Shown here piece after piece: positions 23,624 to 31,908 of a stretch of DNA of 32,000 nucleotides. Both the position numbers and the translations under genes were made by a program. The first letter of the stretch is position 1, and every line of letters starts with the position of its first letter. Below the pieces are notes generated by a model. The model was not told where the DNA came from. It ran no database searches and saw only the letters and a list, made by a program, of their open reading frames with translations. The DNA is from an archaeon (GTDB taxonomy: Archaea; Iainarchaeota; Iainarchaeia; Iainarchaeales; CSSED10-239): positions 90,001 to 122,000 of the forward strand of contig JBBABY010000002.1 in the NCBI GenBank assembly GCA_041657425.1, written 5' to 3'.

Positions 23624-24217
23624 CTATTTCTTCTCTTCTTCGTCTTCATCATCGTCGCAATCTTCACAATCGCACTCATCGTCTTCGCATTCGTGGTCGT
23701 CTTCTCCGCATTCACCGTGACAGCTTGAACAACTTCCTCCACAACTGTGTGCTTCAAGTTCTTCGTCCATCTTTGCTGCTTCTGCCTCTGAAAGTACTTC
23801 AATTAACTTAACTTTAAATGTAAGATTCTTTCCTGCAAGTGGGTGATTTAATATTGCATCAATTGTTGTTTCATCAATCTTAACGATTTCAATAGCTAAT
23901 GGACCCATTCCTGACATTACAACAATTTCTTTGCCTTCTTGTAAGTCACTTATGCTGTTTAATAGTTCCTTTGGAATCTTTGCAACTTCTGTGTTCTTAG
24001 GACCGTATCCTTCTTCAGGAGTTACCTTAATATCTTTTTCTTCTCCTGATTTCATTCCGATTACTCCGTCTTCAAACCCTGGAATAACCATACCAATACC
24101 AACTTTAAACTTTAATGGATCTCTACCTTTACTAGAATCAAACATTGTTCCATCATCTAATAAACCATCATATTCAACTACTATCCAATCATTCTCTTTA
24201 ACACTCATACGTATCAT
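23624..24217 (-). CDS. slyD: SlyD-like FKBP-type peptidyl-prolyl isomerase with a Cys/His/Asp/Glu-rich C-terminal tail
   Basis: The FKBP core contains VEYDGLLDDGTMFDSS, PLKFKVGIGMVIPGFEDGVIGMK and an IF-domain-like insert, then HPLAGKNLTFKVKLIEV. The 41-aa tail is HSCGGSCSSCHGECGEDDHECEDDECDCEDCDDDEDEEEKK. An AAGGAG sequence lies 4-5 nt upstream of the ATG at 24217. Confidence 0.85.
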   Translation of the reverse strand: MIRMSVKENDWIVVEYDGLLDDGTMFDSSKGRDPLKFKVGIGMVIPGFEDGVIGMKSGEEKDIKVTPEEGYGPKNTEVAKIPKELLNSISDLQEGKEIVVMSGMGPLAIEIVKIDETTIDAILNHPLAGKNLTFKVKLIEVLSEAEAAKMDEELEAHSCGGSCSSCHGECGEDDHECEDDECDCEDCDDDEDEEEKK

Positions 24218-24329: not shown

Positions 24330-24539
24330 TTATTTTTTCATTTTATACACTAAAAGATATACAACTGCTGTAATGATACTGAAAAGAATTGCACAAATAA
24401 TCCAAATTGCTTTTGCACCATCTGATAATCCTTTATTATTTGTAAGAACATCATAGATTACCCATATTGCACAAATAAGAGCAAGTATTCCAACTACTGA
24501 ACCGAGTGCTCCAAAACCTGAACTAAATATTCCTGCCAT
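24330..24539 (-). CDS. Small two-helix membrane protein, PLDc_N (phospholipase-D-nuclease N-terminal) family-like
   Basis: The 69-aa protein has two hydrophobic helices with the family-typical WVIYDVL....S...K..W pattern (IWVIYDVLTNNKGLSDGAKAIWII). Confidence 0.5.
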   Translation of the reverse strand: MAGIFSSGFGALGSVVGILALICAIWVIYDVLTNNKGLSDGAKAIWIICAILFSIITAVVYLLVYKMKK

Positions 24540-24612: not shown

Positions 24613-24660
24613 TTACTCTAATTGAGTTCTACCATAGAATCCTTTTGGGAAGTAGATCAG
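24613..24660 (-). pseudogene. Orphan duplicate of the last 15 codons plus the stop of the livM-type permease gene
   Basis: The minus strand reads CTG ATC TAC TTC CCA AAA GGA TTC TAT GGT AGA ACT CAA TTA GAG TAA, which translates to LIYFPKGFYGRTQLE*. This is identical in protein sequence to the C-terminus of the intact gene ending at 25965. There is no upstream ORF, and the RelA/SpoT-domain gene's stop codon overlaps the fragment's first codons. Confidence 0.8.
24626..24657. repeat. Left copy of the exact 32-bp direct repeat gttctaccatagaatccttttgggaagtagat
   Basis: I compared it base by base with 25978-26009 and the two are identical. Confidence 0.95.
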
Positions 24661-25724
24661 TATTTATTTAAAATTATTTCTAAATGTTTTAAAAATTCTT
24701 TAGTATCTAAAAAATAATTGGGATATGCTTTTTTAAGATCTTGCATATTGTCAGCACTAACTAATACAACGTCATATTCGTTTCTATTATATATTTTCTT
24801 TTCTGCAGAAGAATATGCTAGGAGTGCTTCTTTTTCTTCTCTTTTAGTGAATGCAGAAATATTTAGTCTTTCAAGAACTGTATCTAATTCTAAAAGATAA
24901 AATTGTATGTTTTTCTTTTTTTTAAAATTATCAAAGTATTTTACAGATTCAGTCCAGTGCTTCATTTTCTGTTTTACTTGTAACTTTTTTTCTAGTTCTT
25001 TAATTTGTAAATAAAGTTCTTTTTCATTCTGAGGTGTTTGAGAAATTATCGGAGTATTTTCTAGTCTTGCAAATGCGGAACTTACTAATTTAAAAAAAGC
25101 TTTCCAGTTTTCCTCTCCTTGATTAGATTTTATGGCTTGTCTTGTAAAAAAATCAACAGTTTCTACTGCTGTTGCCCAAAGGTGTTGTAATTTAGATCTT
25201 ATTTGCACTTCTACTAATAGACCATTATATTCTTTTTTTCCTTTATCGCTACTATATCTATATACTAAATGTATACTTCTATATCCATCTAATTTAGGGC
25301 TTGAAATATAATCTTTTACATTTACTTTTTTATGCTTTATATCCCCGTTATAATAATAGGTTTCATATAATTCTCTCACTTGTTTAATGTCCGACATCAC
25401 AACTCTACAACCAGCAATATCTTGCATTTGAGTTAATTTCATTGTAGGACAATTATCATTATATTTTCTATTTAGTTTTTTAAATATCGAAGAAATTCTT
25501 TTTAATCTTTGAGCAGAGAGTGCATTTTTGTCTATTTTTTCAGAAACTCTTTTTAATCTATTTTTAAATACTTGTAAGGGATAGTTATGCATTGTCTTCC
25601 AGCTATTCACAATTTCTAATGCTTCATCTATTTCTGCTGCAGAATGCTCTTTATTATCAGATAGAATTATAGCTGAATTATTTATTTTTGATTTTGAGAT
25701 TTCGTTAATATCTAGTTGCTCCAT
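24657..25724 (-). CDS. RelA/SpoT (RSH) synthetase-domain protein, small-alarmone-synthetase / toxSAS-like, with an uncharacterised ~150-aa C-terminal domain
   Basis: The catalytic-domain blocks appear in order: SAQRLKRISSIFKKLNRK (RxKxxxSxxxK), MQDIAGCRVV (DxxGxRV), LDGYRSIHLVY (GYRSxH) and LVEVQIRSKLQHLWATAVE (ExQIR(T/S)..QH.WA). There is no HD hydrolase, TGS or ACT domain. The C-terminal region (QFYLLELD...YDVVLVSADNMQDLKKAYPNYF) matches nothing I can identify. Confidence 0.85.
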   Translation of the reverse strand: MEQLDINEISKSKINNSAIILSDNKEHSAAEIDEALEIVNSWKTMHNYPLQVFKNRLKRVSEKIDKNALSAQRLKRISSIFKKLNRKYNDNCPTMKLTQMQDIAGCRVVMSDIKQVRELYETYYYNGDIKHKKVNVKDYISSPKLDGYRSIHLVYRYSSDKGKKEYNGLLVEVQIRSKLQHLWATAVETVDFFTRQAIKSNQGEENWKAFFKLVSSAFARLENTPIISQTPQNEKELYLQIKELEKKLQVKQKMKHWTESVKYFDNFKKKKNIQFYLLELDTVLERLNISAFTKREEKEALLAYSSAEKKIYNRNEYDVVLVSADNMQDLKKAYPNYFLDTKEFLKHLEIILNKY

Positions 25725-25746
25725 AATAATATATTATTGCATAACC

Positions 25747-25759
25747 TTTTTAAATATAT
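25747..25759 (-). promoter_or_regulatory. TATA box (minus strand ATATATTTAAAAA) for the RelA/SpoT-domain gene; leaderless geometry
   Basis: Exactly 22 nt separate the box from the ATG at 25724. The same spacing is seen at both TrmB genes. The first AAATTGCGCG motif abuts the box on its upstream (BRE) side. Confidence 0.45.
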
Positions 25760-25800
25760 CAAATTGCGCGGTTATCGTGTAAAAAAAGTGTCAAATTGCA
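25759..25800. repeat. Composite repeat unit 1: tcaaattgcgcg - 10 nt - A7 - gtg - tcaaattgca
   Basis: The motifs sit at 25759-25770 and 25791-25800, 32 bp apart start to start. The GCGCG core is conspicuous against the AT-rich background. Confidence 0.7.
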
Positions 25801-25899
25801 AGGAGAATTAAAAAAATCTAATTTTCCTACTAACCTTTATATTTAAAGCATTACCAAACACAAGTACAAAAATCATTTTTAATTATTAAAAAATTTATG

Positions 25900-25943
25900 T
25901 CAAATTGCGCGTGCACTCCAAAAAAAAAATGCTGAATTGCGCA
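25900..25943. repeat. Composite repeat unit 2: tcaaattgcgcg - 8 nt - A10 - tg - ctgaattgcgca
   Basis: The motifs sit at 25900-25911 and 25932-25943, again 32 bp apart. The layout matches unit 1, including the internal A-run. Confidence 0.7.
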
Positions 25944-25964
25944 GACCCTAATTATCAACATTTA

Positions 25965-26837
25965 CTATTCCAACTGCGTTCTACCATAGAATCCTTTTGG
26001 GAAGTAGATTAAGATTATCAAAAGCAAAAGAGCAAAAAGAATCTGTCTTCCTGGACCAACAATTGATGAAGGAAGACCAACAAATCTTAAAATTTCTGGA
26101 ATAAGTGTAAGAATGATTGTAGCTACTACTGTTCCTTCAATGGAAGCAAGTCCTCCAACAATAATTATTGAGATAACTGGGATAAGTGCCATGAAAGTAA
26201 AAGAAGAAGGGTCAATGAAAGTTATGAAGTGAACAAACAACGAACCTGCGATACCAGCAAAGACTGCAGAGATGATAAGCCCAATTGTTTTAATCTTAAA
26301 TGTATTTTTTCCAAGAGCCTTAACACAGTATTCATCATCTCTTGTTGCTTCAAGTAGTTTACCAAACTTAGAGTTTACTATTCTTTGAATAATAAAGTAA
26401 CAAGCAACAGTAACTATTACTGTAAATATTAGATAAGAAAGATTACTACGAAAAACTAAACCAAAGATGTCTGGTTTTGGTATTCCTGAAATCCCAAATG
26501 GCCCTCTTGTTAAGTCTATCCAGTTGATAAGAAGAGCATAGACAAGAAACGAAAACGCCATTGTCCCTAAGGCAAGATAATCTCCTTTAAGTTTATTTGT
26601 TGGTACTGAAAGGATTAGTGCTGCAACTCCTGCTATTATTCCTGCTAAGAGAAACGCAAGAAGGAAAGGGACACCATTCATCACAAGTATTGCTGAAGTG
26701 TAAGCTCCGATTCCAAAGAAAGCAATGTGACCAAAGTTAAGTAGTCCTGTGTAACCAATAGAAACTTGTAAAGCTAAACAAAGTATTAACTGTATTGCAA
26801 TAATAATTAACAAATGTATAAAATAATCAATAATCAT
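25965..26837 (-). CDS. livM: Branched-chain amino acid-type ABC transporter permease (LivM family)
   Basis: This is a polytopic permease with family-typical blocks: GYTGLLNFGHIAFFGIGAY, EATRDDEYCVKALGKN and GGLASIEGTVV. Its start overlaps the livH stop (ATGA at 26834-26837). Confidence 0.85.
   Translation of the reverse strand: MIIDYFIHLLIIIAIQLILCLALQVSIGYTGLLNFGHIAFFGIGAYTSAILVMNGVPFLLAFLLAGIIAGVAALILSVPTNKLKGDYLALGTMAFSFLVYALLINWIDLTRGPFGISGIPKPDIFGLVFRSNLSYLIFTVIVTVACYFIIQRIVNSKFGKLLEATRDDEYCVKALGKNTFKIKTIGLIISAVFAGIAGSLFVHFITFIDPSSFTFMALIPVISIIIVGGLASIEGTVVATIILTLIPEILRFVGLPSSIVGPGRQILFALLLLIILIYFPKGFYGRTQLE
25978..26009. repeat. Right copy of the exact 32-bp direct repeat (inside the functional 3' end of livM)
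   Basis: It is identical to 24626-24657. Confidence 0.95.
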
Positions 26838-27709
26838 TTATTATTCCACCCTTTGTTTTTTCCTAAGATTCCATTAGGCATAAATAATAAAAATATAAAT
26901 AATAACATAAATGCAATTGCATCTTTGTAACTAGATGGCAAGAACCATATTCCATAATTTTCTGTAATCCCTAAGAGAAACGAACCAATGATTGCTCCAG
27001 GAACAGAAGTTATCCCGCCAATGACTGCTCCAGTAAATCCTTTAATCATTAAATTACTTCCCATTGTTGGTTCAACATTTAGTTCTAGAGCAACTAGTAC
27101 TCCTGCAACTGCTGCTAATACTGAACCAATAATGAAACTATATGCAAATAATTTCTTTGAAGAAATTCCCATCATTTCAATTAACTCTGGAGAATCAGCA
27201 ACTGCTCTAAATTCTTTTCCTAGTTTTGTTTTTTTCATGAAAAGTAATAGTCCAACTAACAAGGCAATAGAAGTTCCAATAATTATTAACTGAACAGGAG
27301 TGATTATTGCTCCCAGGAAATTAATACCATGTCTTTGGAAAGATTGTATAATTTTAACATCTGCTCCAAAGAAGATTAAGATTAATGATTCAATTAAAAT
27401 TAACAAAGCAATACTTGCAATCAAGAGGATTGTTGGCGATGCCTTTCTGCTTCTTAGTTTATCATAAACTAGATAATTGATTAAAAAACCAAATCCACCG
27501 GCCACTATAAGAGTAACAATTATTGCAAGCCACAATGGTAAACCTAAAAGATTAAAAAAAGTAAATAACATATAACTAGAAACAACAATTACTGCTCCAT
27601 GAGCAAAATGAACAAATTTGTTTGTAGAATAGATTAAAGAAAAACCACAAGCAACAAGAGCATATATTGCTCCAGCAATGAGTCCATTGATTAATAATTG
27701 TAAAAACAT
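26834..27709 (-). CDS. livH: Branched-chain amino acid-type ABC transporter permease (LivH family)
   Basis: Family-typical blocks are LINGLIAGAIYALVACGFSLIY, NFAHGAVI, RAVADSPELIEMMGI and KGFTGAVIGGITSVPGAIIGSFLLG. Confidence 0.85.
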   Translation of the reverse strand: MFLQLLINGLIAGAIYALVACGFSLIYSTNKFVHFAHGAVIVVSSYMLFTFFNLLGLPLWLAIIVTLIVAGGFGFLINYLVYDKLRSRKASPTILLIASIALLILIESLILIFFGADVKIIQSFQRHGINFLGAIITPVQLIIIGTSIALLVGLLLFMKKTKLGKEFRAVADSPELIEMMGISSKKLFAYSFIIGSVLAAVAGVLVALELNVEPTMGSNLMIKGFTGAVIGGITSVPGAIIGSFLLGITENYGIWFLPSSYKDAIAFMLLFIFLLFMPNGILGKNKGWNNK

Positions 27710-27782
27710 TTGTTTTCTCTTCTTTCTTTAATCATCTTAATTTGATTAAAATATATATTAGAAAAAGATATATAAATGCTTG

Positions 27783-27815
27783 GAAAAAGAAAAAAGAAGA
27801 GCAAGGATTTGCTCT
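27783..27815 (-). terminator. Hairpin plus T-run between the binding-protein gene and livH (possible attenuating terminator)
   Basis: The minus strand reads AGAGCAA-atcc-TTGCTCT (7-bp stem, 27798-27815), followed by TCTTTTTTCTTTTTCC. It begins 8 nt after the binding-protein gene's stop codon. Confidence 0.4.
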
Positions 27816-27823
27816 CTAAAAAT

Positions 27824-28969
27824 TTAGTTGTTTATGTATTTTATATTTCCATTTTCTATAGTTGCTTGAACTAATGGGAAACTAAACTCTCTTCCATTAA
27901 TACTTGCGTCTCCATTGATTCCATTAAACTCTGTAATCTCTGAAAGCCCATCTTTTATTTCTGCTTTTGTATAGTTTGATTTTCCTATTGATTTTTTTAT
28001 AAGATAAACTATATCATATCCTGTTGTAGCATAATGGTCTGCATCTTTATTGTATTTTGCTTTAAATTGTGTTTTAAAGTCTTCAGCTTTTGAGTCATCA
28101 TTTCTATATAATTCAGGAATTCCTGCATATGCTTTAACATTCATTTCATTTAATGCAGATCTAACATCCTTAAATGCTGCTGTTGATGGAATGAAAACTG
28201 CTACATTCATATCAAGTTCTTTACTTTGTTTTATTGAATTAATTATGTGACTACTAAAACCAACAAATAATATTGCATCTACATCTTGATATTTTAATTT
28301 ATTTAATTGAGTTCTAAAATCACTTGTAGATATTAAAAATGATTCGCCTACAACTTCTCCATTGTATTGTTCCTTTAATGTATTAAACATTGAAACTCCA
28401 AAATCATCATTTAAATATAAAACTCCTATTTTTTTTACACCTAAATCATTTGCGGCTTCTACAATTGGAGGAACTTCTTGTTTTGCTGTTGGAAAATATC
28501 TAAATGACCATTCATTTGTTGTTAAGTTTGGAACTGAAGCAATTGTTGCTATTACTGGTACTTGGTTTTGTTCTGCTAAAGGAACTACTGCCATTGCAAC
28601 AGAACTCATTGCTGAAACAATAACTACTGGATCTTGAAGATTTGTCATATTATTGAAAGCTGCAACTCCTTCTTGAACATTTGATTTACTATCGCCTAGT
28701 ACTAAGACAACTTGTCTTCCGTTTATTCCACCTTTGGCATTAATTTCATCAACTGCCATAATCATGCCGTCTCTTATTTGTTCACCTGCAAAAGCTGTTG
28801 AACCTGTAAGTGGTAAAACTGCACCCATCTTTATAATTTGTTCTTCTGGGGTCTTTAATACTAACAATCCTGTTATATTTGAATTAGATCCTATTATTGC
28901 AACTAATAAAATTATAACTATTATTGCAATTGAAACTATTAACCAAATTTTATTTTTCATCGTTTTCAT
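27824..28969 (-). CDS. LivK-like (Peripla_BP_6) ABC substrate-binding protein, membrane-anchored
   Basis: It has an N-terminal TM anchor, followed by GAVLPLTGSTAFAGEQIRDGMIMAVDEINAKGGINGRQVVLVLGDSKSN, which is typical of Leu/Ile/Val-binding-protein family members. An AAGGAG lies 5 nt upstream of the ATG. Confidence 0.85.
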   Translation of the reverse strand: MKTMKNKIWLIVSIAIIVIILLVAIIGSNSNITGLLVLKTPEEQIIKMGAVLPLTGSTAFAGEQIRDGMIMAVDEINAKGGINGRQVVLVLGDSKSNVQEGVAAFNNMTNLQDPVVIVSAMSSVAMAVVPLAEQNQVPVIATIASVPNLTTNEWSFRYFPTAKQEVPPIVEAANDLGVKKIGVLYLNDDFGVSMFNTLKEQYNGEVVGESFLISTSDFRTQLNKLKYQDVDAILFVGFSSHIINSIKQSKELDMNVAVFIPSTAAFKDVRSALNEMNVKAYAGIPELYRNDDSKAEDFKTQFKAKYNKDADHYATTGYDIVYLIKKSIGKSNYTKAEIKDGLSEITEFNGINGDASINGREFSFPLVQATIENGNIKYINN

Positions 28970-29036
28970 AAAAATCTCCTTTTTATTTTTTAACTGTGTA
29001 TAATTAACTTATGACTTTTCGGGTTATTATATTTGT

Positions 29037-29054
29037 GTAGTAAAAATTTACTAC
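29037..29054. promoter_or_regulatory. Palindromic operator candidate GTAGTAAA-aa-TTTACTAC in the divergent binding-protein/TrmB intergenic region
   Basis: The inverted arms are a perfect 8 nt. The palindrome lies immediately upstream of the TrmB gene's TATA box and is conserved in the paralogous intergenic region (31068-31086). Confidence 0.55.
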
Positions 29055-29055
29055 A

Positions 29056-29064
29056 TTTTTAAAG
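29056..29064 (+). promoter_or_regulatory. TATA box (TTTTTAAAG) of TrmB paralogue 1, leaderless geometry
   Basis: It lies 22 nt upstream of the ATG at 29086. An identical sequence occurs with identical spacing at the second TrmB gene. Confidence 0.5.
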
Positions 29065-29085
29065 CTTTCTATATACTATATATTT

Positions 29086-29862
29086 ATGGAAAACATAGAA
29101 ACTAAGGGGATAACCACTTCAAACATAACTGCTAGTTACTTTGAAGATATTGGCTTTAAAAAAAAGTACGCTAATGTTTACTTAGCTCTTCTTAAGTTTG
29201 GGCATATGGGCATACCTGACATTGTTAAAAAAACTGGAGTTCAAAGAAGTTATCTTTACGACATTCTTGATGAATTGATTGAAAAAGGAATTGTTGGAAG
29301 TTATGTAAAAAATAACACTAAAATATTTTTTGCTGATGATCCAGAAAAAGTTCTAAAGATAATTAATAAGAAAGAAGAAAATATTAAGAATTTTAAAAAA
29401 GAATACACTGACATTCTTCCAACGTTAATTTCAATTAGTAGTAAAAATGAAAAAGATGAATTATTTTCATATGAAGGAAAAAAAGGAATTAAAAATATCT
29501 ATGATGACATTTTAAAAGAAGGGAAAGACTTTGTTTGTTTTGCAGGAACTGGATTTCCTGACGATTTTTACAAAGACTTTGTAAAAACATTTAATATTAG
29601 ATGTAAGAAAAAAGGAATTAAATACAAACTAATATTTTCGGACGCACTTAAATCTCGCGGTCCATTAGAAGTACACAAAGATGTTTGTGAAATTAAATAT
29701 TTACCAAAAGAATATAATTATTCTTTTGCTATGCATGTTTATGGAGACAAAGTTTCAATCATTATTTGGCAATCACAAATGGGTATTGTAATAAAAAGTA
29801 AAAATGCTGCAAACGGATTTGCGGATTACTTTGAAATGATATGGAAGATTGCTAAAGAATAA
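29086..29862 (+). CDS. TrmB-family transcriptional regulator (paralogue 1)
   Basis: The N-terminal winged helix is TrmB-type: FEDIGFKKKYANVYLALLKFGHMGIPDIVKKTGVQRSYLYDILDELIEKGIV. A coiled linker and a C-terminal effector-like domain follow. Confidence 0.8.
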   Translation: MENIETKGITTSNITASYFEDIGFKKKYANVYLALLKFGHMGIPDIVKKTGVQRSYLYDILDELIEKGIVGSYVKNNTKIFFADDPEKVLKIINKKEENIKNFKKEYTDILPTLISISSKNEKDELFSYEGKKGIKNIYDDILKEGKDFVCFAGTGFPDDFYKDFVKTFNIRCKKKGIKYKLIFSDALKSRGPLEVHKDVCEIKYLPKEYNYSFAMHVYGDKVSIIIWQSQMGIVIKSKNAANGFADYFEMIWKIAKE

Positions 29863-29868
29863 AAAAGA

Positions 29869-29894
29869 AAAGATATCTTCTCTAAGATATCTTT
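29869..29894. terminator. 9-bp-stem hairpin at the convergent gene ends (possible bidirectional terminator)
   Basis: The sequence is aaagatatc-ttctctaa-gatatcttt. The right arm overlaps the last codons of the minus-strand binding-protein gene. A/T runs flank it. Confidence 0.35.
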
Positions 29895-30997
29895 AATGAT
29901 ACTGCTTCTCCATTTTCAATAATGAAGTAATCTACTTGTGGATTTATTGCTCTTCCAATTGAAGAGTTATAATTTATTACTGTACCTGTTGCTTGATCAT
30001 TTAACATTGCATCAGTAATACATACTTTATCTGCCTTTCCACATTTCTTTACTGCAGAATATAATTTAAATATTCCATCATAATCTGTTGGAGCATTTCC
30101 AGTTATTCCTGTTGTGTTACCATATTCTACATTGTAATCGCTTGTAAATGTGTCAGAATATTTTAATACACTAATAACTGTTCCATTTAAATTTTCTGTA
30201 CCAATTGTAGTTTTAATTTTGTCTGTAAATGTGTTTGATGCATCTCCAAATAACACTAAGTTATTTAACTCAAGATCTAACTTTGCAGTATATACTCCAA
30301 TTGTTGTACCTTCATAAGCACATGAAAATAATCCATAATATCCTTCATTGCTTAACTTAAGTAATACTGTTTTTAGGTCTTGTACCCCTACTAAACTTTC
30401 AACTTTTATATTTTCTTGTGTGTAATAATTTAATGCACCTTTTTGACAATCAATTGGCATAGCCCCACCAACACCATCAAGTATTGCAATCTTTTCAATT
30501 CCTTGTGATTTTGCAATTTTTGCAAATGTTGTACATTCTGCTTCTGCATTTCTATATGTTTTTACTGAGTAATCATATTTTGTTAATGGATCTGTTGTGT
30601 ACGCACTATACAATACAAACATATTGTTATCTTTAGCAATTGGAACAACTGCACCTGATGGGCCAGTAAATTCTACAAATATTACATCAACATTATCTAT
30701 TTGTACTAACTTGTTTGCTGCAACTGCAGCTTCTTTTGCATCTGATTTTGAATCTTCAACTATTACTTGTATTGAATCATCACCATACATTTCTTTTATT
30801 TTCTTTTCTGCTAACAATACTGCTCTTGAATCTGGCACTCCAAGATAACTTGTTGTTCCAGTTATTCCTGTAATAAAACCTATCTTTACTGTTTGTGGTT
30901 CTGATTTTTTAGTTGCTTGAATTGCAACAACAACTATTAAGGCAATAACTGCAATTGCTACAATAATTAAAATCCAATTTTTATTTTCTGTTTTCAT
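29882..30997 (-). CDS. LivK-like (Peripla_BP_6) ABC substrate-binding protein, paralogue 2, membrane-anchored
   Basis: It has a TM anchor, followed by KIGFITGITGTTSYLGVPDSRAVLLAEKKI...VEDSKSDAKEAAVAANKLV. I set the start at Met8 (30997) because a GGAGG lies 9 nt upstream. The ORF-track start is 31018. Confidence 0.8.
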   Translation of the reverse strand: MKTENKNWILIIVAIAVIALIVVVAIQATKKSEPQTVKIGFITGITGTTSYLGVPDSRAVLLAEKKIKEMYGDDSIQVIVEDSKSDAKEAAVAANKLVQIDNVDVIFVEFTGPSGAVVPIAKDNNMFVLYSAYTTDPLTKYDYSVKTYRNAEAECTTFAKIAKSQGIEKIAILDGVGGAMPIDCQKGALNYYTQENIKVESLVGVQDLKTVLLKLSNEGYYGLFSCAYEGTTIGVYTAKLDLELNNLVLFGDASNTFTDKIKTTIGTENLNGTVISVLKYSDTFTSDYNVEYGNTTGITGNAPTDYDGIFKLYSAVKKCGKADKVCITDAMLNDQATGTVINYNSSIGRAINPQVDYFIIENGEAVSLKIS

Positions 30998-31067
30998 AGT
31001 TTCTTTCCTCCAAATCATTTTATCAAGTTATTAAATAACTTATAATCGTTCTTGCTTATAAGTGAGT

Positions 31068-31086
31068 GTAGTAAATAACTTACTAC
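31068..31086. promoter_or_regulatory. Palindromic operator candidate GTAGTAA-ataac-TTACTAC (paralogous to 29037-29054)
   Basis: The inverted arms are a perfect 7 nt. The flanks match the first copy (gtGTAGTAAA ... CTAC-TTTTTAAAG-n-TTTCT-n-TAT). Confidence 0.55.
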
Positions 31087-31095
31087 TTTTTAAAG
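31087..31095 (+). promoter_or_regulatory. TATA box (TTTTTAAAG) of TrmB paralogue 2
   Basis: It lies 22 nt upstream of the ATG at 31117, the same spacing as in paralogue 1. Confidence 0.5.
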
Positions 31096-31116
31096 ATTTC
31101 TGTATTTATGCTATTT

Positions 31117-31908
31117 ATGAAGGAAAAAACCTCAGAAGTAATGGCGATGCCTGACCTTAATCCAGCAGACTTATTTAGTTACTTTGAAGAAATAGGGTTT
31201 AAGAGAAACCATGCAAACACTTATCTTGCTTTGTTGAAATTTGGACAACTTGGAATGCGCGACATTGTTAAAAAAACAGGAATACAAAGAAGTTATGTTT
31301 ATGATATCTTAGATGAACTAACAGAAAAAGGACTTGTTGGATTTTTTACAAAAAACAAAAATAGAGTTTACTTTGCTGATGATCCAGAAAAGATTTTAGA
31401 ATTAATAAATAATAAAGAAGAAAAAATAAAAAACTTCAAACAAAAATACACAGCATTACTTCCTAGTTTAATTTCAGTAACCAATGTTGAAGGAAAAGAT
31501 GGACTGTATGCTTATGAAGGAAGAAACGGTTTAAAGAATATATTTGAAGACATGATTAAAGAAGGAAAAGATTTTGTTTGTTTTGGAGGAGAAGGAGAAT
31601 TCTCTAAATACTATCCAGAATATGCAAACACTTTTACTTTAAGATGTAAACAAAAAGGAATGGCACAAAAAATTGTTTATTCAAGTTCACTTAGAGGAAA
31701 GAGACCACTTCCAATACAGAAAATAATTAAATGTGAAATTAAGTTTTTACCTAAAGAATATTATTATCCATTTGCAATTTATGTTTATGGAGATAAAACC
31801 GCAATCATTATGTGGCAATCAATGCAAGGAATATTGATCAAAGGAGAAAGCACAGCAAAGGGATTTGAAGACTATTTTGAAATGATATGGAAAATTGCTA
31901 AAGAATAA
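31117..31908 (+). CDS. TrmB-family transcriptional regulator (paralogue 2)
   Basis: It is alignable with paralogue 1 over its full length, for example FEEIGFKRNHANTYLALLKFGQLGMRDIVKKTGIQRSYVYDILDELTEKGLV and an identical C-terminus YFEMIWKIAKE. I chose the start at 31117 from the conserved TATA-to-ATG spacing. The ORF-track start is 31108. Confidence 0.8.
   Translation: MKEKTSEVMAMPDLNPADLFSYFEEIGFKRNHANTYLALLKFGQLGMRDIVKKTGIQRSYVYDILDELTEKGLVGFFTKNKNRVYFADDPEKILELINNKEEKIKNFKQKYTALLPSLISVTNVEGKDGLYAYEGRNGLKNIFEDMIKEGKDFVCFGGEGEFSKYYPEYANTFTLRCKQKGMAQKIVYSSSLRGKRPLPIQKIIKCEIKFLPKEYYYPFAIYVYGDKTAIIMWQSMQGILIKGESTAKGFEDYFEMIWKIAKE

Follow-up and report, generated by a model that had tools for sequence, protein, structure and literature searches.

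A CapRel-type defence gene between two copies of a livM 3′ end in a DPANN archaeon: a candidate insertion-duplication scar

Organization of the locus

The window is a stretch of 32,000 nucleotides from a DPANN archaeon. Its minus strand carries a livM-type ABC permease gene of 290 amino acids (25965..26837), which is the insertion target and matches the Pfam profile BPD_transp_2 (E 2.5e-43) and the NCBIfam LivM subfamily (E 3.8e-49). Downstream on the same strand follow a 22-nt spacer, TAAATGTTGATAATTAGGGTCT, which runs from the livM stop to the first promoter motif (25943..25964, delimited from alignments), a cassette promoter/operator region (25725..25942), a 355-amino-acid gene (24657..25724), an orphan copy of the livM 3′ end (24613..24657), and a gene for a small PLDc_N membrane protein (24330..24539; Pfam PLDc_N E 1.4e-5). 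The PLDc_N gene is the original downstream neighbour of livM and belongs to the flank, outside the insert. As the initial annotation stated, the bracketed DNA comprises one gene, the 355-amino-acid ORF, and 240 bp of non-coding sequence.

The cassette is inconspicuous in composition and at its ends. The comparison of GC content and codon usage that had been proposed as a check gives no contrast, with about 26-29% GC in the cassette against about 28% in the genome, and a GC3 of 0.157 in the cassette gene against 0.171 in host genes. Terminal inverted repeats, structured RNAs (Rfam), and terminators were not found above background at the cassette ends. No tyrosine or serine recombinase domain occurs among the 27 window ORFs scanned, the cassette included, in line with the earlier remark that an integrase is absent, and none appears in the precomputed Pfam annotations of cassette-adjacent genes at the related loci L002, L006, L007, L193, and L195.

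The bracketed gene (24657..25724, minus strand) is, judging from its profile and structure matches, a full-length CapRel-type fused toxin-antitoxin defence gene. It has the CapRel architecture of a RelA/SpoT-like nucleotidyltransferase (toxSYNTH) domain and a C-terminal antitoxin/sensor region. The matches comprise Pfam RelA_SpoT (PF04607, E 1.9e-20, residues 72-185), PADLOC PDC-S33 (E 2.9e-116, residues 7-352), and PDB 7ZTB/9ERV (E 6e-47, query residues 10-348 against 16-366); small alarmone synthetase structures also match, at E values of about 1e-9 to 5e-12. The C-terminal antitoxin (pseudo-zinc-finger) region contains the YXXY motif as a sequence match, KKAYPNYF aligning to KKAYPNYF. CapRel(SJ46) is a fused toxin-antitoxin anti-phage system (PDB 7ZTB; Zhang et al. 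2022, PMC9712102) that pyrophosphorylates tRNA, and its toxicity is neutralised in cis and freed by a phage protein (PMC9712102). The window gene is likewise predicted to encode a tRNA-pyrophosphorylating toxin, which its C-terminal domain would keep inactive until a phage protein binds.

The window gene resembles CapRel(SJ46) in near full-length homology, in the toxSYNTH motifs and the C-terminal YPNY (YXXY), and in being one gene of comparable size with its own promoter. It differs in sequence, with an identity of about 30% (a rough estimate from the alignment), and in host, which is a DPANN archaeon here and a prophage of Enterobacteria there. The original description of the subgroup names only bacteria (PMC3153485), whereas the clade of the window gene is common to archaea and CPR bacteria. 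In the IMG/VR viral contigs the only CapRel relatives have at most 43% identity.

The control region (25725..25942, minus strand), delimited by motif positions and conservation across loci, contains four direct GCGCAATTTGA-type motifs (GCGCA) at 25942-25932, 25910-25900, 25801-25791, and 25769-25759, with spacings of 32, 109, and 32. Some 23 nt ahead of the ATG at 25724 there is a TATA-like ATATATTTAAAAA (25759-25747), and motifs 2 and 4 contain sigma-70-like -35 hexamers. The distance from the GCGCA motifs to the start codon is fixed, they overlap with elements of the promoter, and they occur with or without flanking repeats.

The repeat pair

The exact 32-mer at 24626-24657 and 25978-26009 has only these two occurrences, and a match of this kind was seen in 0/100 dinucleotide-preserving shuffles with three mismatches tolerated, which bears out the initial view that the repeat is not a chance event. 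On the coding (minus) strand it extends by 13 nt to a repeat of 45 nt (24613-24657 and 25965-26009) with 40/45 identity. The right copy (25965..26009, minus strand; core 25978-26009, tail G CAG TTG GAA TAG) is the live end of the permease ORF. The left copy (24613..24657, minus strand; core 24626-24657, tail T CAA TTA GAG TAA) is an orphan and probably represents the displaced original livM end. The live end reads ...ACG CAG TTG GAA TAG and the orphan ...ACT CAA TTA GAG TAA, and both translate to LIYFPKGFYGRTQLE followed by a stop.

The two copies form a mosaic. The 32-nt core is identical, and the five differences cluster in the last 13 nt, where the tails differ at 5/5 wobble or stop positions; all are synonymous, at third codon positions or within the stop codon. 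Upstream of the core the similarity breaks off abruptly, and the livM homology extends precisely as far as the CapRel stop codon TGA (24657-24659), whose A is the first base of the orphan. The codons ACG, CAG, and TTG of the live tail are rare genome-wide, at 2%, 14%, and 8% of their synonymous families, whereas ACT, CAA, and TTA of the orphan tail are the common ones, which suggests that a replacement livM end came in with the inserted DNA. The last five livM codons including the stop thus look imported. On all these points, that is, a live right and an orphan left copy of the permease C-terminus, a shared peptide with synonymous and stop-codon differences, an abrupt end of homology, and GC-richer codons on the element-proximal copy, the earlier reading of the sequence agrees with the analysis.

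The arrangement recurs identically in the independently assembled ENA contig k141_619088 (99.97% identity), and two Logan contigs (k=31) have their break point exactly within the 32-mer. The 32-mer was not found in IMG/VR.

Distribution of the promoter-plus-gene unit

CapRel relatives occur in 499 species-level genomes, and the 80 retained loci come from DPANN archaea, Methanosarcinales (including Methanoperedens), CPR bacteria, and Gammaproteobacteria MAGs. Close relatives, at 60-80% protein identity, are present in both domains of life. The unit of promoter and gene lies in many genomic contexts, with copies 79-90% identical in protein. Its upstream genes include livM (window, L006), a RhuM-family gene (L002), FtsY (L012, L193), an ABC ATPase (L195), ATP synthase subunit D (L018), an epimerase (L037), and ParE (L014), so that the search for the same cassette next to other targets gave a positive answer. 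These contexts, together with an empty site for a sister cassette, support the initial proposal of an insertion: the bracketed DNA is best described as a horizontally acquired single-gene defence cassette with its own promoter/operator region of about 240 bp. The mobile unit is a promoter plus one gene, landing right behind intact genes.

Part of this distribution may be vertical. In the clade of L006, L012, L192, L193, and L195 the cassette keeps its position just upstream of a small gene of 61-71 amino acids, and the CapRel identity of 79-84% is similar to that of the host genes FtsY (68-82%), SRP54 (88%), and TGT (88%). Homology of the small gene is confirmed for L006-L192 and for L193-L195, and is not confirmed between the two pairs.

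The empty site belongs to the lineage of L006, where a sister cassette lies directly behind livM. The strains L092-L094 match L006 at about 97-99% identity on both flanks (98.5% next to livM), and 1311 bp beginning just past the livM stop are missing from them, which identifies them as the empty site for this cassette. The L006 insertion is free of repeats and has 22 bp replaced. As the one insertion with a true empty-site comparison thus has no duplication, insertion-duplication is not the sole route. Donor-derived SNP clusters were not found on the left flank of this insertion, where divergence is a uniform 1% or so; the sole SNP cluster nearby lies 175-230 bp to the right, within a small variable gene. 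The 22-nt spacer is common only to the livM-associated cassettes of the window, L006, and L192, and is missing from the empty site, which indicates that it arrived with the cassette.

The search for an empty site thus succeeded for the sister cassette and not for the window's own lineage, where it would consist of livM running straight into ACTCAATTAGAGTAA and PLDc_N with one copy of the repeat. Looking up LivM, LivH, and PLDc_N by exact protein sequence yielded the window arrangement again or Logan contigs broken within the 32-mer and nothing else, and a metagenome scan and a search of 5.8 billion proteins gave no LivM between 76% and 100% identity. With neither an empty site nor a close relative in the databases, insertion in the window lineage is deduced rather than seen.

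The window has a counterpart in L192, a 3.1-kb contig without a livM gene. There, a livM-like end, a 22-bp spacer, a cassette, and a right junction (AATACTGAT), all the same as in the window, precede a second partial livM fragment. Its livM-end fragment is non-coding and 92% conserved, against 86% for the cassette, and DNA divergence between the window and L192 is 14%. A run of 17 nt (GGATTCTATGGTAGAAC) is identical in all four copies of the two loci, two of which are non-coding. The orphan tails and the downstream flanks differ, from immediately after the orphan stops. The shared right junction suggests that the two loci may derive from one event rather than two; the shared 17 nt could instead mark a recognition core.

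Recurrent scars at other genes

Direct repeats of 24-151 bp tightly bracket CapRel in 8/79 non-redundant loci (about one in ten), namely L013, L014, L018, L029, L034, L037, L081, and the window. All repeat sequences are different, and the core of the window recurs only in L192. At the loci examined the repeated sequence comes from the 3′ end of the gene upstream or from a hairpin-containing stretch right after it. The left copy lies 158-415 bp from the ATG, the right copy begins 0-36 bp past the stop codon at six loci and 102 and 257 bp past it at the remaining two, and the repeat-to-repeat periods are 1334-1659 bp. Contig P0006, whose 1352 bp equal the repeat period exactly, was set aside as a coincidence, being a truncated piece that extends just 77 bp upstream of the gene. 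In a matched test with a score of at least 20, brackets occur at 6/68 CapRel loci and at 5/334 control genes (Fisher p = 0.004), an enrichment over background that is significant and modest.

Conserved cassette termini or inverted ends were not found, and no carry-over of earlier flanks is detectable in the other repeat-bracketed loci. The L018 orphan differs from its live end at all codon positions, which fits decay after duplication and is uninformative on donor alleles. At the sister genome L197, an amidohydrolase and not CapRel lies between a live and an orphan atpD end, with a duplication length different from that of L018; comparison of the orphan and the shared downstream sequence points to a single-copy ancestral state at atpD. 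Among 80 LivM loci, duplication of the livM end by other cargo gave weak candidates only, of 27 bp (L120) and 22 bp (L113/L114).

Origin of the scar

The preferred reading, to which a probability of roughly 55% is given, is that host recombination, assisted by homology, left an insertion-duplication scar and that 24658-25964 plus one repeat copy were acquired horizontally. What the sequences show directly are the structures, the homologies, and the empty site, from which the recombination pathway is deduced. In the donor lineage the cassette would already have been placed directly behind livM, and the incoming DNA would for this reason have carried the donor livM 3′ end and the 22-nt spacer. 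Pairing of this DNA with the resident livM may have occurred over the conserved 3′ coding sequence, with the identical 32-nt core as an exchange or conversion tract, and its far end would have been joined, just past the CapRel stop, to a site lying 45 nt before the resident livM stop. The product would be livM with an imported tail, the cassette, the resident livM tail as an orphan, and PLDc_N, in this order. A circular copy may have entered by a single crossover (Campbell-type insertion-duplication); homology-facilitated illegitimate recombination or template switching is the other candidate route. A cassette-specific integrase is probably not involved: the occurrence of the same scar type at other genes in related genomes argues for ordinary host recombination. 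Duplications of a 3′ end would survive because the upstream gene is left intact.

Local rearrangement is a rather improbable alternative. It takes the cassette as old and vertically inherited, the orphan as a duplicate of the livM end or the remnant of a second livM, and the 32-nt identity as the work of gene conversion. The kept position upstream of the 61-71-amino-acid gene, with CapRel divergence close to that of host genes, is compatible with such a history, as is the lack of an empty site for the window lineage in the databases; the right junction common to the window and L192 would make the structure older than their 14% divergence. Against this stand the empty site known from the L006 species and a bracket that recurs at unrelated genes and taxa more often than at control genes. 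The exact stop of livM homology at the CapRel stop codon also speaks against it, as do the downstream flanks of the window and L192, which part right after the orphan stops, and synonymous-only differences with rare live codons are hard to obtain through decay of a local duplicate.

Site-specific integration is less likely again. The 32-nt core would then be an att site, the livM end would be part of attP, and a recombinase encoded elsewhere would integrate and excise the cassette. Genomic islands classically leave a direct repeat at the 3′ end of a gene together with a replacement end, and the window has this footprint. The window and L192 share end, spacer, and right junction while their orphan tails and downstream flanks differ, 17 core nucleotides are identical in four copies including the two non-coding ones, and four GCGCA motifs within 220 bp of the core have a geometry reminiscent of arm-type sites. 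These motifs, however, sit on promoter elements at a fixed start-codon distance and are independent of the repeats. Related cassettes are bracketed by unrelated repeats of 24-151 bp at other genes, conserved termini were not found, the sister insertion at the same livM stop is repeat-free with 22 bp deleted, no recombinase is present among the predicted genes of the window, and the family extends over two domains of life. The suggestion of a non-autonomous cassette mobilised in trans at an att site is thus not upheld, with repeats that vary in length and sequence, variable ends, and the repeat-free L006. From the broader integration claim, the imported livM 3′ end is retained (rare codons; the same end, spacer, and junction in L192), but not a defined attL/attR pair.

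Residue of a larger integrative element, the other option that had been put forward, is very unlikely. The integrase and other genes would have been deleted and CapRel left between attL and attR. Integrase-less islands between att-like repeats are common decay products, and the L002 cassette adjoins AbiEii-family and RhuM-family genes. But at eight independent loci the repeats hug one gene, 158-415 bp before the ATG and 0-257 bp past the stop, and repeated deletions would not all end at the same gene; the L006 insertion moreover measures only 1311 bp against its empty site.

A target-site duplication through staggered cuts by a transposase or casposase-like enzyme would also flank the insert with direct repeats of the target, and is hardly credible given repeat lengths of 24-151 bp, which contradict it, the lack of terminal inverted repeats, varying insert ends, and copy differences in the window that indicate two alleles. 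Integron attC, casposon, and transposon models are ruled out by the nature and length of the repeat.

Implications

The genomes of DPANN archaea and CPR bacteria are tiny, and few mobile elements are known from them. The locus gives a concrete view of defence-gene gain and loss in these groups; according to a published survey, compact single-gene defence candidates are enriched in DPANN, and Patescibacteria show a similar pattern (PMC12988326). A more tentative reading is that single-gene defence cassettes of ultra-small archaea and bacteria could spread without a recombinase, with the 3′ end of the previous upstream host gene carried along as a homing arm. Slots made up of an intact gene, a cassette, and an orphan end would thereby be re-created behind housekeeping genes, open to a later exchange of cargo. 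The livM-end fragment may then be a selected part of the mobile unit, in keeping with its 92% conservation as non-coding sequence in L192. If this homology-arm reading is true, defence-gene turnover would be explained without integrases, and an orphan gene end would be a computational signature for dating and mapping recent gene gains. The archaeal/CPR CapRel clade and its conserved four-motif control region are candidates for experimental study.

Comparison with known systems

Genomic islands and integrative elements can insert at the 3′ ends of tRNA or protein genes and bring a replacement end with them (attL/attR). The window resembles them in the direct repeat of a gene end, the imported live end, and the displaced original. 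It differs in having no integrase and no fixed att, in a repeat that changes with each target, and in a content of one gene within 1.3 kb.

Integron cassettes are single-gene mobile units without a recombinase of their own and occur across domains, as does the present unit; archaeal integrons are reportedly known from work by Ghaly et al. in 2022. The hallmarks of integron cassettes are a 3′ attC site, the usual lack of a promoter, and an array context. In contrast, the 32-mer has no attC-type R′/R″ end motifs on either strand (by eye), the repeats copy the neighbouring host gene (livM coding sequence), the cassette has its own promoter, and array, attI, and IntI are absent within the window.

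The minimal mobile elements of Neisseria, said to have been described by Saunders and Snyder in 2002, are similar in their recombinase-less cargo between conserved genes, exchanged by homologous recombination, and in alternative cargo in one slot, as in L018 and L197. Those elements leave no duplicated flanks.

Insertion-duplication and homology-facilitated illegitimate recombination in naturally transformable bacteria, reportedly the subject of studies by de Vries and Wackernagel and by Prudhomme et al., both in 2002, have in common with the window a heterologous segment between chromosomal duplicates of variable length, with one side guided by homology and the other junction arbitrary. The outcomes are also alike, comprising duplications (window, L018, L037) and small deletions (L006). 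Those processes are known mainly from laboratory constructs and transformation, whereas the scar here is a recurrent natural one and surrounds a defence gene in both archaea and bacteria.

The duplicated livM end and the bracketed gene

The 32-mer is present in exactly two copies in the window, at 24626-24657 and 25978-26009, and no match was found in 100 shuffles with up to 3 mismatches tolerated. All genes around the cassette lie on the minus strand. In that reading direction the match runs on for another 13 nt, to a total of 45 nt (40/45 identical). The right copy (25965-26009) forms the 3' end of the gene for a LivM-type permease (290 aa). The left copy (24613-24657) is an orphan, and its first base is the last base of the CapRel stop codon. 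Both copies translate as LIYFPKGFYGRTQLE*; of their five differences, four fall at wobble positions and the fifth is in the stop codon. The identical repeat-cassette-repeat structure is present in an independent ENA assembly, and two k=31 Logan contigs terminate within the 32-mer; the structure is therefore not an assembly artefact. The end of L175 and the start of L173 (Logan, SRR18595299) fall inside the 32-mer. Logan assemblies break up at exact repeats longer than k=31, so repeat-bracketed cassettes will be split there systematically. The initial annotation had described an exact, synonymously diverged duplication of the livM 3' end with different stop codons, and had placed between the copies one RelA/SpoT gene, its promoter region and no recombinase, all of which is confirmed.

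The bracketed gene (24657-25724, minus strand) is a 355-aa ORF with a RelA_SpoT domain, preceded by 240 bp of upstream sequence. The CapRel(SJ46) crystal-structure sequence aligns to nearly the full ORF, including the C-terminal YPNY motif (E 6e-47), and the PADLOC candidate PDC-S33 matches it with E 3e-116. By these alignments the ORF is a defence gene of CapRel type, with toxin and antitoxin fused; we infer its biochemistry from PMC9712102. It is a new member of the CapRel family from an archaeal/CPR clade. A comparison of cassette and host found no contrast in GC or composition, the cassette being unremarkable against a genome of ~28% GC.

The rest of the window consists of archaeal housekeeping genes such as NMD3, beta-CASP nuclease, SMC, SerRS, and archaeal prepilin peptidase, and no recombinase was found among its predicted genes. 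The liv cluster (25965-31908; also locus L001) contains livK, livH, and livM without the downstream ATPase genes livG and livF. Upstream of it are repeated divergent pairs of TrmB-regulator and substrate-binding-protein genes; L001 has four of the latter. In L195, another cassette locus, the cassette lies behind an ABC ATPase gene instead. At 23624-24217 the window encodes an FKBP-type peptidyl-prolyl isomerase with a Cys/His/Asp/Glu-rich tail (...HSCGGSCSSCHGECGEDDHECEDDECDCEDCDDDEDEEEKK), reminiscent of SlyD-type metal-binding tails.

The promoter region

The 240 bp upstream of CapRel contain four direct GCGCAATTTGA-type motifs with a spacing of 32, 109, and 32. Motifs 2 and 4 contain sigma-70-like -35 hexamers (TTGACA/TTGATA-like), and in the window a TATA-like box lies ~23 nt ahead of the CapRel ATG. 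The otherwise AT-rich upstream regions of the window (25725-25942, minus strand) and of the retrieved loci L002-L091 carry 3-4 direct GCGCA(A/T)(A/T)(A/T)TGA-type motifs, arranged as two pairs ~32 bp apart and found in 54 scanned loci, both archaeal and bacterial. The archaeal TATA-like box comes after motif 4. Motif variants tend to match within a locus (identity 0.66, versus 0.51 between loci); all four are GCGCATTTTGA in L023 and GCGCAAAATGA in L069. The region may serve as an operator for autoregulation, or as a promoter that works in both domains.

Mobility of the cassette

The CapRel protein family has thousands of members. Proteins with 60-90% identity occur in DPANN archaea, Methanosarcinales (including Methanoperedens), CPR bacteria, and some Gammaproteobacteria MAGs, and species-level genomes with a CapRel relative number 499 in total. 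Similarity at the DNA level between contexts starts at the first motif and stops at the CapRel stop codon, and the genes that precede 79-90% identical copies include livM, FtsY, a RhuM-family gene, and an ABC ATPase. In locus L006, a CapRel copy with 80% protein identity is situated immediately 3' of the livM stop, with an identical 22-nt spacer. Three related contigs (L092-L094) match L006 at ~97-99% identity in both flanks, with 98.5% on the livM side, but where L006 has its 1311-bp insert they have 22 unrelated bases. They are a genuine empty site for the L006 insertion, which occurred without duplication. The cassette moves. An empty allele, which the initial annotation proposed to look for, exists for L006; for the window's own lineage none was found in the databases searched. 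The predicted empty-site junction for the window is GATAATCTTAATCTACTTCCCAAAAGGATTCTATGGTAGAACTCAATTAGAGTAAAATAAGC, and that of an excised circle or tandem form is AAATAAATACTGATCTACTTCCCAAAAGGATTCTATGGTAGAACGCAGTTGGAATAGTAAATG. A second presence/absence difference separates these near-identical strains, as L006 (8817-9496) has a 680-bp segment with a 193-aa Lcl_C-domain gene in place of 13 bp in L092 (6641-6653), again with no flanking repeat.

Recurrent scars and changing cargo

Direct repeats tightly bracket CapRel in 8 of 79 non-redundant loci. They measure 151 bp at 93% identity in L018, 87 bp (98%) in L037, 64 bp (97%) in L014, 63 bp (89%) in L029, 37 bp (100%) in L034, 31 bp (90%) in L013, and 24 bp (100%) in L081, in addition to the 32 exact bp of the window. 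Repeat scores were 22-70 in the six cases caught by the test, and at most 15 in mismatched-locus controls. With identical geometry, a score of 20 or more was reached by 6/68 CapRel loci versus 5/334 other genes in comparable genomes (Fisher p = 0.004). All eight sequences are different. In the loci examined, the repeat is the end of a co-directional upstream gene (ATP synthase D, epimerase, ParE, livM) or a hairpin-containing stretch directly after it. The distance from the CapRel stop to the start of the right copy is 0-36 bp in six loci and 102-257 bp in the other two, and the left copy finishes 158-415 bp ahead of the ATG. Neither inverted termini nor an Rfam element was found at the cassettes. 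The window repeat is one case of a recurrent scar, and not a fixed att.

The same slots hold other genes. L197 is from a sister genome of L018 (78% DNA identity over the ATP synthase operon), and the slot behind ATP synthase subunit D contains an amidohydrolase in L197 (4001-5980) versus CapRel in L018 (2957-5300). On one side of the amidohydrolase is the live atpD end; on the other is an orphan end that is shorter than in L018 (~45 bp versus 151 bp) and is followed by the same downstream sequence. In locus L083 (2179-3321), an exact 55-bp repeat lies on either side of a Fic/DOC gene that adjoins CapRel, and begins 5 bp past the stop of the upstream gene. Locus L091 (113-5056) has interleaved repeats of 120 bp (x1, 100% identical) and 119 bp (x2, 98% identical), in the order x1, CapRel, x2, nucleotidyltransferase (MNT-like) genes, x1, AAA_14/DUF4143 ATPase, x2. 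The arrangement resembles a tandem fusion of two alleles that are alternatives for a single slot. At other livM genes, an exact 27-bp repeat starts at the livM stop in L120 (2756-2782 and 5409-5435), and an exact 22-bp repeat lies inside the livM end in L113-L114. The second copy of each lies 1.9-2.7 kb downstream, and in L120 a binding-protein gene separates the two. They may stem from further insertion-duplications at livM, or from duplication of a TrmB-livK module.

Origin of the livM end

The five differences between the window copies are confined to the last 13 nt and are all synonymous. Within their codon families, the live tail codons ACG, CAG, and TTG have shares of 2%, 14%, and 8% in this genome, versus 36%, 86%, and 51% for the orphan codons ACT, CAA, and TTA. 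Random decay of a duplicate would leave another pattern; an orphan that fits such decay is seen in L018, with differences at all codon positions and the stop lost. The clustering of the synonymous differences and the rare codons speak for an imported live livM end, in agreement with the replacement 3' end proposed earlier.

The closest cassette, L192 (90% protein and 86% DNA identity), combines a livM-like end, the identical spacer, the cassette, and the identical right junction (AATACTGAT); another partial livM fragment follows, yet its 3.1-kb contig has no livM gene. The first four of these parts therefore travel or persist as one unit. The livM-end fragments lie at 1225-1432 and 2744-2766; the left one is non-coding and 92% identical to the live livM end of the window, versus 86% for the cassette itself. 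Immediately upstream is a putative LivK-like binding-protein remnant (C-terminal, by manual reverse-strand translation), which abuts FtsY. The orphan tail and downstream flank of L192 are unlike those of the window. Both loci may derive from one ancestral event. In one clade, cassette position and divergence track the host, so part of the history may be vertical.

Formation of the scars

The initial annotation read the repeats as attL/attR of an element integrated into the 3' end of a gene. For a dedicated integrase with a fixed att, the 17 nt that are identical in all four window and L192 copies could serve as a recognition core. Several observations count against this explanation: repeats and cassette ends are diverse, the sister insertion in L006 has no repeat, no recombinase was found among the window's predicted genes, and the family is spread across domains. 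A single crossover between the chromosome and a circle with a short homologous segment would leave the observed footprint, as would a homologous exchange on one side only, with the other junction formed at an arbitrary point. Such recombination events could give a duplication, as in the window, or a small deletion, as in L006. Scars would be found at gene ends because only 3'-end duplications leave that gene intact. No circular form of the cassette was seen, and in the literature searched neither this cassette nor comparable scars at DPANN/CPR defence genes are described. In form, the window scar is similar to 3'-end-targeting islands with attL/attR; in behaviour, it is similar to insertion-duplication and homology-facilitated illegitimate recombination.
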